Assembly (NCBI GenBank): GCA_963783255.1
Contig: CAWAMP010000022.1
Coordinates: 566,761 to 630,760, forward strand
Reading direction: 5' to 3'
Length of the DNA stretch: 64,000 nt
Origin: an uncultured Acidobacteriota bacterium
GTDB lineage: Bacteria; Acidobacteriota; Vicinamibacteria; Vicinamibacterales; Fen-181
The position numbers and the translations under genes are program-made. Under the pieces are notes generated by a model that saw only the letters and a list, made by a program, of their open reading frames with translations, ran no database searches and was not told the DNA's origin. Positions 1 to 63,314 of the stretch are shown in pieces (positions within the stretch are counted from its first letter, which is position 1; every line of letters starts with the position of its first letter).

Positions 1-39
1 ATCTCGCGATCGTGGGATCCGTCGCACGCCGCCGGTTTC

Positions 40-127
40 GCAAGGTCCCACGTTCGCACGATCCCTGGTTCGCACGATCCGTGGTTCGCACGATCTCCAG
101 TTCGCAAGATCGCAAGATCGCAAGATA
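40..127 (+). repeat. 8-nt-period tandem array, locus A (11 phased octamers ending 13 nt before the symporter ATG)
   Basis: Read in one phase: GCAAGGTC CCACGTTC GCACGATC CCTGGTTC GCACGATC CGTGGTTC GCACGATC TCCAGTTC GCAAGATC GCAAGATC GCAAGATA. A weaker same-phase signal continues back to nt 1 at the window edge. Period 8 cannot be coding, although ORF 12..1634 runs through it. Confidence 0.85.
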
Positions 128-8562: not shown

Positions 8563-8675
8563 GATCTTGCGACGTTGCGATCTTGCGAACTGGTTATCCC
8601 GCGAGCTGGGATCTCACGGAATGGAGGCTGGCCGAAGTCCTTCGCAAGATCTCGACTTCGCACGATCGCAAGGTG
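8563..8675. repeat. 8-nt-period array, locus B, arranged as two inverted arms between convergent genes
   Basis: Arm 1 is GATCTTGC GACGTTGC GATCTTGC GAACTGGT (8563-8594). Arm 2 is AGTCCTTC GCAAGATC TCGACTTC GCACGATC GCAAGGTG (8636-8675). GATCTTGCGA at 8563-8572 is the exact reverse complement of 8642-8651. Confidence 0.85.
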
Positions 8676-19459: not shown

Positions 19460-19508
19460 TCCGCTGCCGGCCATCCGCTGACAGCTAACAGCTGACCGCT
19501 GCCAGCCG
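19446..19508. repeat. weak 7-nt-period tract (NNNGCTG units) spanning two convergent stop codons
   Basis: Units read TCAGCGG ACCGTGA TCCGCTG CCGGCCA TCCGCTG ACAGCTA ACAGCTG ACCGCTG CCAGCCG. The hairpin CAGCGGA-CCGTGA-TCCGCTG (19447-19466) carries the hydrolase TGA in its loop. Confidence 0.4.
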
Positions 19509-41340: not shown

Positions 41341-42293
41341 CACGCCGCGCAGCGACCGCGCTGCTGGCACTCGCAGCCGTCCTGGTCGTCGCGGACGGTT
41401 CGGTGATCGCCGCCCCGCAGGCGGCGCCGTCGGCGGCCGGAGGCGCGTCCATCGACCGCGGAACGTTCGAGCACCAGCGCCGGATCCCTCCCGGCCCGAT
41501 CGGCGTCTCGCTGCTGCGGCTCGATGTCCAGGCCCTGGCCCATGCCCGGCTGGCCGACGTCCGCCTGGTCACGGCCGACGGGTTTCAGGTGCCCTATGTG
41601 CTCGAGAACGACGAGACGCCGTGGCGCATCGAGCTCGCGCCGTTGGTCGCGGTCGACGAGCCACGGGTCGCGGCTCGCCTGAGTCAGAGGCAGGGCCGGT
41701 CGCGCAGCGTCTACCAGATCGTGTTCCCGATCGCCGGGATGCCGCCGTGCGACCTCATCCTCGAAACGAACGCGCGGGTATTCGAGCGCGAAGTCAGCCT
41801 GCTCGTGAAGGACGACGGGCGTCGGAGACGGCCGCCAGGGGATTGGGAGACGGCCGCATGGGCGGCGTGGCGGCATGCGGACCCCGACACGCCGGCGGCA
41901 CCGCTCGTCCTCCACCTGCCCCGCCTGCCCGTGCCGGGATCGGCCACGGGCCGCCTGGTTGTAGACGAGGGGGACAACCGGCGGTTGCCGATCGCCGCGC
42001 CGAGGATCGAGGTGCGAACCTGTCGGCTTCGGTTCGTGAGGGAATCGCCCGACGAGATGTGGTTGGTCTACGGACGGGCGGGACTGACCGCGCCGCAGTA
42101 CGACCTGGCACTGCTCGACCGACGGCTACGCAGGTCGGAGGCTCACGAGGTGATGGCCGAGGCCGAACGGCCGGCGGGCGGCCCCGAGTTCGACGGCCGT
42201 TCGCGAGCGGTGTTCTGGGGGGTACTGATCGCGGCGGTGGTGGCGCTGCTGGCCGTCGTCGCCCGGCTGCTGATGTCGCAGCCGGGCCGCTGA
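41337..42293 (+). CDS. secreted, C-terminally anchored protein (DUF3999-like; family name tentative)
   Basis: Its ATG overlaps the upstream TGA (ATGA at 41337-41340). The 318-aa product has a signal peptide, a beta-rich body and the C-terminal TM helix VFWGVLIAAVVALLAVVARLL. Confidence 0.6.
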   Translation: MTRRAATALLALAAVLVVADGSVIAAPQAAPSAAGGASIDRGTFEHQRRIPPGPIGVSLLRLDVQALAHARLADVRLVTADGFQVPYVLENDETPWRIELAPLVAVDEPRVAARLSQRQGRSRSVYQIVFPIAGMPPCDLILETNARVFEREVSLLVKDDGRRRRPPGDWETAAWAAWRHADPDTPAAPLVLHLPRLPVPGSATGRLVVDEGDNRRLPIAAPRIEVRTCRLRFVRESPDEMWLVYGRAGLTAPQYDLALLDRRLRRSEAHEVMAEAERPAGGPEFDGRSRAVFWGVLIAAVVALLAVVARLLMSQPGR

Positions 42294-42309
42294 CCTGCCG
42301 GCACGGCCG

Positions 42310-42330
42310 CGCCCTGGGATTCGCAGGGCG
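42310..42330. terminator. hairpin between convergent genes
   Basis: CGCCCTG-GGATTCG-CAGGGCG forms a 7-bp stem. It lies 17 nt after the stop at 42293 and 4 nt before the infA stop. Confidence 0.5.
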
Positions 42331-42333
42331 AAC

Positions 42334-42552
42334 CTAGCGGGCGCGGAAGGTGATGATCCCTCGCACGAGGTCGTAGGGAGAGACGCTGACGGTCACGCGG
42401 TCGCCGGTGACGACCTTGATGCGGAACCGGCGCATCCGGCCGCTCAGCTGGGCGAGAACCTCGTGCCCGGCGTCGGCCTGGACGCGGTAGAGCCCGCCGC
42501 CGTGGATGGAAGTGACCGTGCCCTGGATGTCGAGAAGATCCTCTTTGCTCAA
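42334..42552 (-). CDS. infA: translation initiation factor IF-1
   Basis: The TTG start at 42552 gives a 72-aa product, (M)SKEDLLDIQGTVTSIHGGGLYRVQADAGHEVLAQLSGRMRRFRIKVVTGDRVTVSVSPYDLVRGIITFRAR. This is canonical IF-1 length and sequence. Confidence 0.9.
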   Translation of the reverse strand: MSKEDLLDIQGTVTSIHGGGLYRVQADAGHEVLAQLSGRMRRFRIKVVTGDRVTVSVSPYDLVRGIITFRAR

Positions 42553-42596
42553 AGTGCGATGCCCTTCGTAGCAGTGGCCAGAATCGGAAGAAGTTC

Positions 42597-42699
42597 GATC
42601 TTGCGGTCTTGCGATCTTGCGAAGTACGCATGGGCTGCTGGACGCCCCCGACCGCGCGATTGCACGTCGCACGATCGCACAATCGTACTTCGCAAGATG
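42597..42699. repeat. 8-nt-period array, locus C, two inverted arms in the infA leader / 3' region of the RRM gene
   Basis: Arm 1 is GATCTTGC GGTCTTGC GATCTTGC GAAGTACG (42597-42628). Arm 2 is GCACGTC GCACGATC GCACAATC GTACTTC GCAAGATG (42662-42699). ATCTTGCGAAGTACG at 42614-42628 is the exact reverse complement of 42684-42698. Confidence 0.85.
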
Positions 42700-42709
42700 C
42701 GACTACGAA

Positions 42710-43021
42710 CTACCAGCGCGGCTCGCGCCGCCGGTTGCCGCCACCGCCGCCGCCGAAACCGCCCGAGCGCTCTGGGCGCGGCTTCGCCTCGTTGACCGTC
42801 AGGCTGCGGCCGCCGAGATCGCGGCCGTGCATCTGCGCGATGGCGTTCTGCGCGTCCGCCTCGGACGCCATCTCGACGAACGCAAAGCCGCGCGCCCTGC
42901 CCGTCGCCATGTCGCGGACGACGTTCACCGATGCCACCTGTCCCGCCGTGCCGAAGAGGTCCTGCAGGTCCTGCTCGGTCGTGTTGAACGGGATGTTGCC
43001 AACGTAGAGTCTCATGCCCAT
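42710..43021 (-). CDS. RRM-type RNA-binding protein with C-terminal Gly/Arg tail
   Basis: RNP motifs are LYVGNIPF (RNP2) and RGFAFVEM (RNP1). The tail is SGGFGGGGGGNRRR. GAGGAG lies 10 nt before the ATG at 43021. Confidence 0.9.
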   Translation of the reverse strand: MGMRLYVGNIPFNTTEQDLQDLFGTAGQVASVNVVRDMATGRARGFAFVEMASEADAQNAIAQMHGRDLGGRSLTVNEAKPRPERSGGFGGGGGGNRRREPRW

Positions 43022-43323
43022 ATCCGTCTGGCTCCTCTGATCCCAGCGCCTGCGACCGCCGCACCGTGGCGCCACGCGGTTGGTGAAGTCGAGGGGTCCC
43101 CCTCGATGCAGCTGTTAGCCGGTGAAAACGTCGCAAGAGAGAGGAGCGAGTCCGGACGACTCGTTTCAGCTCGTGTCGCGGGCTTTCGAGGATAGGCTAC
43201 GGAAACAGTATAGCACGGGCGGGCCTGGCGTCCGGCCCCGGCATTCGGTCCTTGATCTCCGGCCGGGAACGGCGTAGTGTCGTATGGAGCCCCGGCTCCG
43301 AAACCCAGCCTGTCGAGGTACCC

Positions 43324-43536
43324 ATGGCGACGTTCAAGGTAGGCGACCGCGTCACACAGCCGAACTACGGCGACGGCACGATTACCGGCGCGGACGACCA
43401 CCACATCGTGATTGACTTCGACGGGCACGGTGTCAAGCGGTTTGCCAGCAGTCTCGTCGTCCTCGAGCGCACGTCCGCGCCCGCGCCTGCCAGGGCCGTC
43501 AAGCCCAAGCGGGTCCCCAAGACCGCCAAGGCGTAG
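43324..43536 (+). CDS. small protein with Tudor/DUF3553-like N-terminal domain and basic tail
   Basis: A 70-aa protein. FKVGDRVTQPNYGDGTITG...IVIDFDGHGVKRF resembles the UvrD/PcrA C-terminal Tudor-like fold. The C-terminus is Lys/Pro/Ala rich. Confidence 0.5.
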   Translation: MATFKVGDRVTQPNYGDGTITGADDHHIVIDFDGHGVKRFASSLVVLERTSAPAPARAVKPKRVPKTAKA

Positions 43537-46309: not shown

Positions 46310-46349
46310 AATCTTGCGATCGTGCGAAGTGGCGAACTGGCGAACTGGC
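46310..46349 (-). repeat. 8-nt-period array, locus D (5 phased octamers)
   Basis: The plus strand reads AATCTTGC GATCGTGC GAAGTGGC GAACTGGC GAACTGGC. This is the same unit vocabulary as locus E. It lies 50 nt upstream of the FHA-GGDEF start. Confidence 0.85.
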
Positions 46350-46354
46350 GGCCG

Positions 46355-46418
46355 GCGACTGGCGGCTTGCGGCGGTGTCACGGGCGACAGCGTGACCCGG
46401 CCGCAAGCCGCCAGTCGC
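46355..46418 (-). terminator. long GC hairpin after the M28 peptidase gene
   Basis: GCGACTGGCGGCTTGCGGC (46355-46373) is the exact reverse complement of 46400-46418, a 19-bp stem. The 26-nt loop contains a further GTCACG/CGTGAC pair. It starts 7 nt after the stop at 46425. There is no U-tract. Confidence 0.75.
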
Positions 46419-53223: not shown

Positions 53224-53305
53224 GTCCGCAGTCATCCGTTCTGAGTTCGGAGTTCGGAGTTCTGAGTTCTGAGTTGTGAGTGGTGAGTGGTGAGGCGAGA
53301 GGAAC
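53222..53305 (+). repeat. 7-nt-period array, locus F (12 phased heptamers filling the whole spacer from stop to start codon)
   Basis: Units read GAGTCCG CAGTCAT CCGTTCT GAGTTCG GAGTTCG GAGTTCT GAGTTCT GAGTTGT GAGTGGT GAGTGGT GAGGCGA GAGGAAC, then AC-ATG (53308). Confidence 0.9.
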
Positions 53306-53307
53306 AC

Positions 53308-54471
53308 ATGGACAGGGCACTGGCGGCAGAAGTCGAGTCGATGGCCGGCACGCTGGTGGCGTGGCGGCGCGACTTCCACCGGCACCCGGAACTCGGGTTC
53401 GAGGAGCACCGGACGTCCGGCGTGGTGCGCGCGTTCCTCGAGGCGACGGGCATCGAAGTCCGCTCGTGCGGCAGGACGGGGCTCCGGGGCTTCCTCCGAG
53501 GCGGAAGGGCGGGCCGGACCGTGGCGCTTCGCGCCGACATGGACGCGCTGCCGGTCGCCGAGATCGCCGACCACGACTACCAGTCCGAGCATCAGGGCGT
53601 CATGCACGCGTGCGGGCACGACGGCCACATGGCCATCCTGATGGGCGCCGCCAGGATCCTGGCCGCCCGGCGCGACACGCTCGCCGGAAACGTCGTGTTC
53701 CTGTTCCAGCCGTCCGAGGAGAGATCGCCGGGCGGCGCGCCGCTCATGATCGAGGAAGGCGCCCTCGAGGGAGTGGACAGCATCTTCGGCCTTCACCTGT
53801 GGCAGCCACTGCCTTCGGGCGTCGTGGGCCTGCGCGCGGGCGCCATGATGGCGCAGGCCGACGAGTTCGAGGTGGTCGTCCACGGTCGCGGCGGCCACGC
53901 GTCGCAGCCGCAGATGACGGTCGATCCCGTCGTGGTCGCCTCGCACCTCGTCGTCGCGGCGCAGACCATCGTCAGCCGGTTCGCGGACCCGGTGAAAGCC
54001 GCCGTCGTGTCGTTCACCACGATCCACGGCGGTCGGATTCACAACATCATCCCCGACTCGGTGACGATGGCCGGGACCGTGCGGACGCTCGACCTGGCGA
54101 CTCAGCGGGCCGTGAAGCAGCGGCTCGGCGAGGTGTGCGAGGCGACGTGCCGGTTGTTCGGCGCCACCGCCGAATTCACGTACGCGGACGGCTATCCGCC
54201 GCTGCTGAACGACGAGTCGTCGGTGGACCTCGTGTCCCGCGCGGCCGCCCGCGAACTGGGCGCCGACCGCGTCCGAACCATCGCGCCGGTGATGGGCGGC
54301 GAGGATTTCGCGTACTTTCTGCAGCGCGTCCCCGGAGCGTTCGCGATGCTGGGCACCGGCGACAACCGGCCGTACCCGCACCACAACGCGCGGTTCGACA
54401 TCGACGAGAGCGTCCTGCCGATCGGTGTGCGGCTGATGACCGCCGTCGCGCTGGAGATGATGCAGGGGTAG
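53308..54471 (+). CDS. M20D-family amidohydrolase (N-acyl-amino-acid amidohydrolase / hippuricase type)
   Basis: It contains WRRDFHRHPELGFEE, MHACGHDGH, FQPSEE and the GGEDFAYF blocks of M20D. Confidence 0.9.
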   Translation: MDRALAAEVESMAGTLVAWRRDFHRHPELGFEEHRTSGVVRAFLEATGIEVRSCGRTGLRGFLRGGRAGRTVALRADMDALPVAEIADHDYQSEHQGVMHACGHDGHMAILMGAARILAARRDTLAGNVVFLFQPSEERSPGGAPLMIEEGALEGVDSIFGLHLWQPLPSGVVGLRAGAMMAQADEFEVVVHGRGGHASQPQMTVDPVVVASHLVVAAQTIVSRFADPVKAAVVSFTTIHGGRIHNIIPDSVTMAGTVRTLDLATQRAVKQRLGEVCEATCRLFGATAEFTYADGYPPLLNDESSVDLVSRAAARELGADRVRTIAPVMGGEDFAYFLQRVPGAFAMLGTGDNRPYPHHNARFDIDESVLPIGVRLMTAVALEMMQG

Positions 54472-58133: not shown

Positions 58134-58157
58134 GAACGGGCTCCTTCTCACAAGGAT

Positions 58158-58241
58158 GGCTCCTGGCTCTTGGCTCTCGGCTCCCGGCTCTCGGCAGAGA
58201 GCCAGACGCGGCCTGAGGCCGAAGGTCGAGAGCCCAGAGCC
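58158..58241. repeat. 7-nt-period array, locus H (12 phased heptamers with inverted arms)
   Basis: Units read GGCTCCT GGCTCTT GGCTCTC GGCTCCC GGCTCTC GGCAGAG AGCCAGA CGCGGCC TGAGGCC GAAGGTC GAGAGCC CAGAGCC. There is a perfect hairpin, GGCTCTC-GGCA-GAGAGCC (58186-58203). Confidence 0.85.
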
Positions 58242-58245
58242 GGTA

Positions 58246-58674
58246 TTATCGTGCAGGTCGGATGCGGAGGATCCCCAACTGGGCGAGCAGGCCGGTAAAG
58301 TCGTAGAAGCGCCGCTCCGCGGCGATGAGCAGATCGGGGTTCAGATCGAACAGCGACACGCCGTCGAACGAGCACCGCTTGCCCGTCCCGGCAAGCCCCA
58401 TGAAGCTGCCTCTGTGGGTGGCGCTGACCGAGAAGGCGACCGCCAGTCGGTGACCGTCTGTGATGGGTGTGTCGAAGCCGATCTGCCAGTCGGGGAAGAT
58501 CTCGAACAGCGTTTCATACGTGCCGCGAATCGCCAGCTGCCCCTCGACGCGGGCGAACATGGGGCTGTCGATCACACCGTTCTCGGCATGGTCGAGCGAG
58601 AGGGCCACCGCGTCGCGATGATTCCACCCGGCCGTGTGGCGCTCGATGAATGACGTGATCGGGTCGGTGGTCAT
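58246..58674 (-). CDS. SnoaL-like ester cyclase family protein
   Basis: A 142-aa protein with ITSFIERHTAGWNHRD, FEIFPDWQ and the THRGSFMGLAGTGK blocks typical of ester cyclases. Confidence 0.7.
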   Translation of the reverse strand: MTTDPITSFIERHTAGWNHRDAVALSLDHAENGVIDSPMFARVEGQLAIRGTYETLFEIFPDWQIGFDTPITDGHRLAVAFSVSATHRGSFMGLAGTGKRCSFDGVSLFDLNPDLLIAAERRFYDFTGLLAQLGILRIRPAR

Positions 58675-61715: not shown

Positions 61716-61789
<74 letters not shown>

Positions 61790-61828
61790 CCGAGGGTCCC
61801 GCGCGGAGCGTCAGCTGCCGGCGCGGAC

Positions 61829-61854
61829 AAAAAACGCGCGGTCACGGCCGCGCG
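61829..61854 (-). terminator. Rho-independent terminator directly after tRNA-Gly
   Basis: In minus sense, CGCGCGG-CCGTGA-CCGCGCG is followed by TTTTTT (plus-strand A6 at 61829-61834). It lies between tRNA-Gly and tRNA-Cys. Confidence 0.65.
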
Positions 61855-61871
61855 CTTGGCAGGGAAAAAGA

Positions 61872-61946
61872 TGGAGCGGGAAACGGGATTCGAACCCGCG
61901 ACTTCGACCTTGGCAAGGTCGCACTCTACCACTGAGTTATTCCCGC
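61872..61946 (-). tRNA. tRNA-Gly (anticodon GCC)
   Basis: The acceptor is GCGGGAA/TTCCCGC. The anticodon stem is CGACC/GGTCG with loop TTGCCAA. The T-loop is GGTTCGAATCC. Length is 75 nt including an encoded CCA. Confidence 0.9.
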
Positions 61947-62513: not shown

Positions 62514-62739
62514 CTTCGTCTTCCATGATCTCGCGCACCACCTCTGGCGGGAGCCGGAACACTCCCCAACTCGCGTCGACCAGGCTGGCCTTTGGAGCCG
62601 CATCCTGGGCCGGGCCGGCAAAGTAGCGCCTCAAGGCGTCCTCGAGAATCGCCGCCATCGGCCGCCCTTGGCGGGCGGCCTCGAGCTTCGCCCGGTGAAA
62701 CAGCGACGCGTCCATGACCGTACTCACCTTCTTCCTCAT
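62494..62739 (-). CDS. putative antitoxin of the PIN toxin
   Basis: An 81-aa protein, MRKKVSTVMDASLFHRAKLEAARQGRPMAAILEDALRRYF (ribbon-helix-helix-like), with an acidic tail. It sits upstream of and overlapping the PIN gene. Confidence 0.55.
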   Translation of the reverse strand: MRKKVSTVMDASLFHRAKLEAARQGRPMAAILEDALRRYFAGPAQDAAPKASLVDASWGVFRLPPEVVREIMEDEDDWLES

Positions 62740-62745
62740 TTCATA

Positions 62746-62777
62746 ATGATACCATGATTTCATGATATCATCATGAT
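62746..62777 (-). promoter_or_regulatory. AT-rich putative operator/promoter of the toxin-antitoxin pair
   Basis: This is the only AT-rich patch in the window. ATGAT occurs four times, starting at 62746, 62754, 62762 and 62773. The palindrome ATGATATCAT spans 62762-62771. It lies 7 nt upstream of the antitoxin ATG. Confidence 0.4.
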
Positions 62778-62782
62778 GTCGC

Positions 62783-63160
62783 CTATCGGTAGACCGCGTC
62801 GAACGCGTTCTGGAACACGACAACCTTCAGGCCCGCGCCCGGCTCGAACTGCACAGCCACCACGTCGAACCGGCACGGCACGCCGTGCAGATGACGGCGA
62901 ACAAGGTAGTCCTCCGCCATGGCGGTCACCTTCGCCTGCTTGTGCAGCGTCACGGCGTCGGCCGGCTCGCCGTAGCGGTCGTTCGTCCTCGCCTTGACCT
63001 CCACGAAGACAATCGTCGGCCCGTCGCGGCAGACAATGTCAATTTCGCCAAAGCGAGTGCGGTAGCGGCGAGCAAGAACTGAGTACCCGCGGCGCTCCAG
63101 CTCGCGGCAGGCGAGGTCCTCGCCCGAAATTCCTAAGGAAATGCGATCCAGGGTGGGCAT
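62783..63160 (-). CDS. yraN: YraN-family (UPF0102) endonuclease-like protein
   Basis: A 125-aa protein with GEDLACRELERRGYSVLARRYR, GEIDIV and the VFVEVKAR blocks. Confidence 0.85.
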   Translation of the reverse strand: MPTLDRISLGISGEDLACRELERRGYSVLARRYRTRFGEIDIVCRDGPTIVFVEVKARTNDRYGEPADAVTLHKQAKVTAMAEDYLVRRHLHGVPCRFDVVAVQFEPGAGLKVVVFQNAFDAVYR

Positions 63161-63206
63161 ATGCCCGGATCAACGTGCAAGGACGGGGCCGGGGGGAGAA
63201 TCCAGC

Positions 63207-63286
63207 GATCTTGCGATCTTGCGATCTTGCGATCTTGCGATCTGGCGAACTGGCGAACTGGCGAACTGGCAATCGTGCGAAGTTGC
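63207..63286 (-). repeat. 8-nt-period array, locus E (10 phased octamers, best copy)
   Basis: The plus strand reads GATCTTGC x4, GATCTGGC, GAACTGGC x3, AATCGTGC, GAAGTTGC with no phase slip. It lies 47 nt upstream of the yraN start and 29 nt downstream of the ribF stop. Confidence 0.95.
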
Positions 63287-63314
63287 GAACCGGGAGGGAG
63301 CGGTCCGTCGACGG

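Follow-up and report, generated by a model that had tools for sequence, protein, structure and literature searches.

A stem-loop between an RRM-protein gene and infA belongs to an intergenic, lineage-specific palindrome family built of octamer repeats in some soil Acidobacteriota

The window, i.e., the whole stretch of 64,000 nucleotides analysed here, has a G+C content of 68% and carries on its minus strand infA, the gene for translation initiation factor IF-1, preceded by a gene for an RNA-binding protein of the RRM type. The spacer between these two genes contains a repeat-built stem-loop, hereafter locus C. The features of this region, in the order of the minus strand, are as follows.

42710–43021, minus strand: gene for an RRM-type RNA-binding protein (103 aa, ATG at 43021)
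42684–42698, minus strand: 5′ arm of the stem in the mRNA sense, AUCUUGCGAAGUACG, made of one antisense-type octamer plus a GAAGTACG unit
42629–42683, minus strand: loop region with degenerate antisense-type octamers (GATTGTGC GATCGTGC ...), containing an 11-bp inner hairpin and a 4-bp hairpin
42614–42628, minus strand: 3′ arm of the stem, CGUACUUCGCAAGAU, running directly into the octamer array
42597–42620, minus strand: tandem octamers GCAAGATC GCAAGACC GCAAGATC, three units
42553–42596, minus strand: start-proximal infA leader, with a Shine-Dalgarno-like GAAGGG at 42562–42567
42334–42552, minus strand: infA (IF-1, canonical 72 aa, TTG start)

The TTG start given to infA in the preliminary description of this DNA is well founded: it yields the canonical 72 aa and is shared by each of the 16 leaders compared (see below). 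The closest named IF-1 is from the Vicinamibacterales (85% identity), and the RRM protein of the window has no exact match on record. The RRM gene is preceded by a long untranslated stretch (43022–43250, minus strand) with a GC hairpin (CGAGGGGGACCCCTCG, about 43086–43101), a lone octamer-like sequence (TCTTGCGACG, about 43129–43138) and a weak match to Rfam family RF04354 (E = 0.38), which is at chance level.

The stop codon of the RRM gene (42710–42712) and the TTG of infA (42552) delimit a spacer of 157 nt, and the stem starts 11 nt after the stop codon. A perfect 15-bp stem with a 55-nt gap had been described here, and the coordinates and sequences are correct: 42614–42628 (ATCTTGCGAAGTACG) is the exact reverse complement of 42684–42698, with 55 nt (42629–42683) between the two arms. 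The longest perfect inverted repeat found in 2000 dinucleotide-preserving shuffles of the spacer measured 12 bp, and the real arms can be prolonged, with imperfect pairing, to 22 nt (86% complementarity). Read in the infA sense, the proximal arm is CGTACTTC GCAAGATC GCAAGACC GCAAGATC; the array stops at 42597, which leaves 44 nt up to the TTG, and the sequence after the stem is CGCAAGACCGCAAGAUCG. The 93-nt hairpin has a predicted energy of −51.7 kcal/mol (z = −5.4) in the infA sense and of −43.0 kcal/mol (z = −4.5) on the opposite strand. The segment between the arms, earlier called a 55-nt loop, has that length but is not open in the predicted fold, in which it forms an 11-bp inner hairpin (42649–42677), with two G-U pairs in the mRNA sense, and a 4-bp hairpin. 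The Shine-Dalgarno sequence and the TTG of infA are unpaired in the predicted fold. In the window only, a predicted 8-bp helix between 42702–42709 and 42565–42572 places the element beside the Shine-Dalgarno sequence.

The stem is longer than chance would allow because both of its arms are units of one dispersed repeat family. The units have the form (A/T)TCGCAAG, with the variants TTCGCACG, TTCGCCAG and TTCGTACT; the consensus is ATCGCAAG, which reads GCAAGATC in the other phase. The window contains 13 copies of GCAAGAYC, where 4.25 would be expected. Period-8 arrays were detected with TRF at 86–126, 8566–8588, 42596–42622, 46324–46350 and 63205–63288, all of them intergenic. Besides locus C, the window holds four octamer-array sites, all intergenic on the GC3-based gene map.

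22–126, plus strand: locus A, units of 16 and 8 nt with TTCGCAAGATCGCAAGATCGCAAGAT at the end, single orientation; the ATG (142) of a transporter-like gene follows after 15 nt
8563–8672, no strand assigned: locus B, antisense units, spacer and sense units (divergent arms), between convergent genes
46313–46366, minus strand: locus E, variant octamers TTCGCCAG, TTCGCACG and ATCGCAAG, single orientation, with a minus-strand ATG (46261) about 50 nt downstream and, on the upstream side of the array, a separate GC-rich hairpin
63205–63288, minus strand: locus D, about 10 octamer units, 4 of them perfect GCAAGATC, single orientation; a minus-strand ATG (63162) lies 44 nt downstream of its end

The distribution of the family was examined by searching one genome per species, 185,579 species in all, for exact matches to the 22-nt pattern CGCAAGATCGCAAGATCGCAAG, which corresponds to nearly three units. 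In all, 42 loci matched, and 25 of them come from five Acidobacteriota MAGs (BP8.bin110, MFD00032.bin.2.43, MFD01872.bin.1.18, fen_299 and MFD01476.bin.1.216); the remaining matches are sporadic singles. A scan of JGI metagenomes added 55 octamer-array loci. A literature search on the octamer string and on repeat elements of Acidobacteria returned nothing specific, and the family appears to be undescribed so far. On these data, the hairpin at locus C belongs to a family of intergenic palindromes built from octamer repeats, which is lineage-specific and found in some soil Acidobacteriota. An array of 3 to 6 (GCAAGATC)n units is also found in Burkholderiales, upstream of one conserved gene (L010, L065 and L084, i.e., a MAG and metagenome contigs with common downstream sequence). 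It looks like an independent single-locus simple repeat that stands outside the Acidobacteriota family.

The anatomy of the family was derived from a pool of 89 arrays at 82 high-GC loci. The arrays are found in convergent, divergent and co-directional intergenic regions, and their orientation relative to the next gene shows no preference (31 same-strand, 31 convergent). We had considered them as 5′-UTR or promoter elements, given about 19 sense versus 5 antisense arrays beside gene starts in the first 32 clusters; this idea was abandoned with the 31 versus 31 obtained on all 89 arrays. The arrangement of paired arrays, on the other hand, is strict. Where opposite arrays lie within 160 nt of each other (L006–L110 plus the window), the inverted partner precedes the sense array in 19 cases and follows it in 0, so that the order is always (GATCTTGC)n, centre, (GCAAGATC)m. 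Locus C obeys the same order and is a small, asymmetric example of this divergent-arm architecture. Hairpin formation alone does not explain the 19:0 count, because either order would pair; to our knowledge, no rule of this kind has been reported for the short tandemly repeated repetitive (STRR) sequences discussed below.

The paired-array loci fold into hairpins of about 85–210 nt in which the outer consensus units pair well, and the inner parts of the arms are degenerate and not mirror images of each other. Arm length ranges from 2 to 18 units across loci. The outer ends of the elements read GAATC, GTATC, TCATC, GCATC or CGATC. The centres differ from locus to locus and are unrelated; a BLAST search with the centre of locus C finds only its orthologue in contig L001. 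A few small copies resembling REP sequences exist, for example GATCTTGCGAAGT-GGGG-AGTTCGCAAGAT in L019. Polar growth of the arrays, with degenerate units at the 5′ side and perfect ones at the 3′ side, was rejected: the difference (157 versus 119 in-phase units, 36 versus 35 arrays) is not significant.

Four orthologous sites other than locus C could be compared between species, namely window locus E/L059, L041/L067, L013/L081 and L007/L030/L108. At each of them the array persists while the number of units, the variants and the partner arm change; L059, for instance, differs from locus E in unit composition. In L007, L030 (54–120) and L108, whose array compositions all differ, the last unit ((A/C)TCGCA) occupies the −35 position of a perfect TATAAT box placed only 12 nt before the ATG. 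An mRNA started from this box would be nearly leaderless. The octamers could also be read as a self-contained sigma-70 promoter (TTCGCA as −35, CAAGAT as −10), a candidate that we rejected: the spacers measure 13–14 or 21–22 nt, never 17, and the promoter scan was negative.

The preliminary description proposed that the stem-loop could be part of a structured leader of infA and that the infA upstream regions of related genomes should be compared. Leaders were collected through IF-1 homologues and contig look-ups, and 16 were compared (the window, L001–L005, L048–L055, L111 and L112). The RRM gene is directly upstream of infA wherever the upstream gene is visible among these 16. The same order is kept on nearly every contig with a visible upstream gene, the exception being the P0007 contig, in which infA is preceded by a 71-aa minus-strand gene in place of the RRM gene. 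The spacer between the two genes varies widely in length (42, 56, 61, 94, about 132, 138, 140, 157, 160 and 165 nt; the 140-nt one belongs to the JGI 3300075153 contig, which encodes an IF-1 with 96% identity), and the element is present in 2 of the 16 leaders only, those of the window and L001. It is missing from seven contigs that encode an IF-1 either the same as that of the window or 99% identical to it, a result that speaks against the proposal. Six of these seven, L002–L005 (identical IF-1) as well as L049 and L050 (99% identical), have a 61-nt spacer devoid of any hairpin, in which a single octamer or a degenerate remnant (GATCGCACGATCG, GATCGCAAGATC or GATCGCCCGACCG) sits exactly at the position of the window's array end. 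The seventh, L048 (99% identical), has an unrelated 42-nt spacer, also without a hairpin. Several close relatives being hairpin-free, the hairpin is dispensable. A search of JGI metagenomes with the invariant infA-leader 20-mer GAAGGGCATCGCACTTTGAG gave 0 matches.

The comparison between the window and L001 is informative about the pairing itself. The nucleotide identities of the two are 95.9% for infA and 92.1% for the RRM gene; in infA, 9 of 219 nt differ, all synonymously, and the protein is identical. The array consists of 5 octamer units in L001 and 3 in the window. Of the 48 pairs predicted in the window, 41 are kept in L001 and 7 are broken, with 0 compensatory changes. Two of the broken pairs belong to the main stem, which acquires C-A and C-C mismatches, and the minimum-energy fold of L001 does not contain the window's main stem; the inner stem shows an A-U to G-U change, and the enclosing 8-bp helix loses 2 of its 8 pairs. 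Given the lack of compensatory changes, the two broken main-stem pairs and the L001 fold without the stem, the pairing at locus C is, in this two-sequence comparison, under no visible selection. The element differs by 13.4% between the two sequences and the 45-nt start-proximal leader by 4.4%, i.e., the element evolves about three times faster; the start-proximal leader is conserved in L001 and in the relatives with 61-nt spacers. The constrained part is the short leader beside the start codon, not the hairpin.

Other lineages have hairpins of their own at the same position. A GC-rich hairpin unrelated to the octamer element is found soon after the RRM stop codon in L051, L052 and L112 (spacers at L051:931–1064, L052:548–683 and L112:711–851; sister lineage), and L053 and L111 (94-nt spacer, L111:271–364) each have their own hairpin after the RRM stop, again unrelated to the octamers. 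Between L051 and L112, 18 of 19 pairs are kept; one change is compensatory (G-C to C-G) and four are wobble-mediated, a faint sign of covariation since effectively two sequences are compared. Across lineages, at least four sequence-unrelated stem-loops thus occur in the RRM-infA spacers that were read, and three lineages have none; a fifth long spacer is present on the P0004 contig. This recurrence suggests that a stem-loop after the RRM gene is useful, and that there may be selection for uncoupling the RRM gene from infA. In L111, a 12-nt direct repeat (TGGGATCACGAT twice) abuts the infA TTG.

We then compared the octamer family with known kinds of elements. The Rfam scan of the window at gathering thresholds returned three tRNAs only, and the local scan at E ≤ 5 gave two chance-level matches, both outside the element. 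A conserved infA leader structure was rejected, given an element present in 2 of 16 leaders, spacers of 42–165 nt and no compensatory pair. The preliminary description had also considered that the structure could terminate the RRM gene. Like an intrinsic terminator, the element is a strong stem-loop that closely follows a stop codon, and the non-homologous hairpins found there in relatives agree with a function at this end of the transcript; on the other hand, the U-tract is missing, the two arms are 55 nt apart and the terminator scan of 42000–43500 was negative, which excludes an intrinsic terminator of the canonical kind. A 3′ stem-loop with a protective or attenuating role is the better fit.

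Among dispersed repeats, the STRR sequences of heterocystous cyanobacteria are similar in several respects: they are tandem arrays of 7–8-nt units, intergenic, dispersed in one lineage and able to form hairpins. A description in terms of head-to-tail arrays of 7–8-nt units at many intergenic loci of a lineage applies to the octamer arrays as well. However, the unit is 8 and not 7 nt long, its sequence is unrelated and the hosts belong to the phylum Acidobacteriota, so that membership in the STRR1–3 heptamers is excluded; the octamer family is an analogue of the STRRs, not a member. STRR hairpins are found between the co-transcribed genes hupS and hupL, where their function is unsettled and a stabilisation of the transcript has been proposed (PMC2670836). 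The REP, BIME and REPIN elements are high-copy intergenic hairpins, lineage-specific, persistent at orthologous sites and sometimes in tandem (PMC3733652; PMC3116915), and roles in termination and mRNA stabilisation have been proposed for REP sequences (PMC3733652). The octamer elements share with them the intergenic location, the multiple copies, the hairpins, the restriction to a lineage and the persistence at orthologous sites. They differ in that a REP is a fixed imperfect palindrome of 20–40 bp, whereas here an 8-nt unit is repeated in arrays, the loops are long and non-conserved, and some elements lie between divergent genes. The GTAG- and CGTC-tagged REPs were excluded: the ends of the octamer elements have no consistent tag, and GTAG occurs only as an internal junction variant (GAAGTAGGGATC) or as part of a stop codon. 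Finally, Correia elements are co-transcribed with their neighbours, form hairpins that RNase III can bind or cut, and alter adjacent expression (PMC2649163). Like these and other MITEs, the octamer elements are intergenic, roughly 100–150 bp long and have inverted ends; unlike Correia elements, which have a conserved core, defined 26-bp terminal repeats and a target duplication, they have a locus-unique centre and array ends of variable length, and no target duplication was seen. A MITE with conserved core and fixed inverted repeats is excluded as well, since the centre of locus C retrieves only the L001 orthologue and the arms vary.

Our preferred reading, held with moderate confidence, is that the family copy at locus C acts as an intercistronic stem-loop of the REP/STRR type, protecting or attenuating the RRM transcript, and is not a leader specific to infA. 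The comparison of leaders shows that, in the ancestor of the window and L001, the element came to occupy a short RRM-infA spacer of about 61 nt, either beside the single octamer that the spacers of relatives already contain or by growth from it. Slippage has since altered the copy number of the array, and the drift of the arms has been roughly neutral in rate. The RRM gene and infA are probably co-transcribed, because the gap between the array and the start codon is only 44 nt and the relatives have spacers of 42–61 nt; the promoter scan found no promoter-like site in the RRM-infA spacer. The common transcript would fold, 11 nt after the RRM stop codon, into a hairpin of roughly −50 kcal/mol, which by analogy with REP/BIME, STRR and Correia elements could serve as a barrier to 3′ exonucleases and/or as a partial stop to read-through. 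The consequence would be a level of RRM mRNA raised relative to infA mRNA. Initiation on infA would probably be left alone by the hairpin, because the Shine-Dalgarno sequence and the TTG are 30–45 nt downstream and unpaired. The stronger fold in the mRNA sense (−51.7 versus −43.0 kcal/mol) and the G-U pairs of the inner hairpin, with its A-U to G-U change in L001, count for a role of the RNA hairpin; however, with no orientation bias in the family (31 versus 31), a neutral repeat or an element acting as double-stranded DNA fits as well as RNA.

The main alternative is that the element does nothing at this locus and is neutral or selfish repeat DNA, expanded by slippage, the stem being a by-product of opposed arrays. 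We regard this as possible, though on the unlikely side. Much of the evolutionary record agrees with it: the 13.4% divergence of the element is close to the synonymous rate of the neighbouring infA, the pairs have changed without compensation, close relatives lack the element, and the units change in number and type at five orthologous sites. In addition, the family uses all types of intergenic region without regard to gene orientation, and within the arms only the consensus outer units pair. It accounts less well for the persistence of arrays at one intergenic site across species-level divergence, for the strict divergent order, unexpected from random slippage, and for the unrelated hairpins, one with covariation, that recur in the RRM-infA spacer elsewhere. 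The lack of orientation bias also suits a strand-symmetric target, i.e., an array of double-stranded sites to which a clade-specific protein would bind, be it a regulator, a nucleoid protein or a repeat-spreading enzyme, with an incidental hairpin potential. The sharply defined octamer consensus, the fixed arrangement of the arms, which resembles paired binding sites, and, in L007, L030 and L108, the last unit located where a perfect TATAAT promoter would have its −35 element point in the same direction. Nevertheless, such a protein is hypothetical, the 8-bp period does not match the helical repeat, the number of units is highly variable at orthologous sites, and some arrays are placed between convergent genes, a location in which one would not expect a promoter; we consider this explanation decidedly improbable.

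A regulatory leader specific to infA, whether a thermosensor or an autoregulatory site for IF-1 or the RRM protein, that tunes the weak TTG start is hardly credible. Its attraction lies in the position of the hairpin in the spacer upstream of infA, in the TTG start universal in the clade, in an upstream gene that codes for an RNA-binding protein, and in the window-only 8-bp helix that brings the element beside the Shine-Dalgarno sequence. Yet this enclosing helix has itself lost pairs in L001, the predicted fold leaves the Shine-Dalgarno sequence and the TTG unpaired, no Rfam family matches the element even at E ≤ 5, and the hairpin is absent from the seven contigs with an identical or 99% identical IF-1. 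Moreover, the same type of element lies beside many unrelated genes and between convergent genes. Together with the lack of compensatory changes, these data do not sustain the structured infA leader of the preliminary description. A last and more ambitious possibility, quite unlikely in our judgement, is that the clade, which is Vicinamibacteria-like, actively maintains a genome-wide system of palindromic tandem-octamer elements whose divergent-arm architecture is obligatory, and that a dedicated protein spreads or homogenises them or uses them as bidirectional transcript-end or insulator signals. If so, the infA copy would be one node of a regulon-scale layer extending over hundreds of intergenic regions.

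As regards infA, the outcome is deflationary: the stem is a recently acquired, fast-drifting repeat and not an ancient control of an essential translation factor. More generally, an abundant and mostly uncultured clade of soil Acidobacteriota carries apparently undescribed tandem-octamer palindromes with a strict arm order, a counterpart of the REP elements and of the cyanobacterial STRRs that may affect transcript ends. The octamer elements also mislead gene callers, and many IF-1 genes are annotated 20–50 codons too long through the leader. Many database IF-1 entries of the clade measure 90–126 aa because the open reading frame was extended in this way; in the window, a GTG at 42672 would give 112 aa.

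Other short repeats are present in the same DNA. An unrelated 7-nt intergenic array, GCTGACA, lies at 19477–19506; a GTTCTGA/TGAGTGG array at 53238–53294 runs straight into a Shine-Dalgarno sequence and an ATG at 53308; and a TGGCTCY array at 58157–58250 has an inverted GAGAGCC partner. Loci of related MAGs contain still other families with units of 7–8 nt (TACTTCG, GGCTAGT and CGGCGGT), and the clade seems to be generally rich in intergenic short tandem repeats. Finally, an AT-rich patch with ATGATATC-like repeats (CATTTCATAATGATACCATGATTTCATGATATCATCATGATG) stands out at 62720–62800 from the 68% G+C of the window, with a gene end at 62783 on one side and two tRNA genes (61719–61946) on the other.
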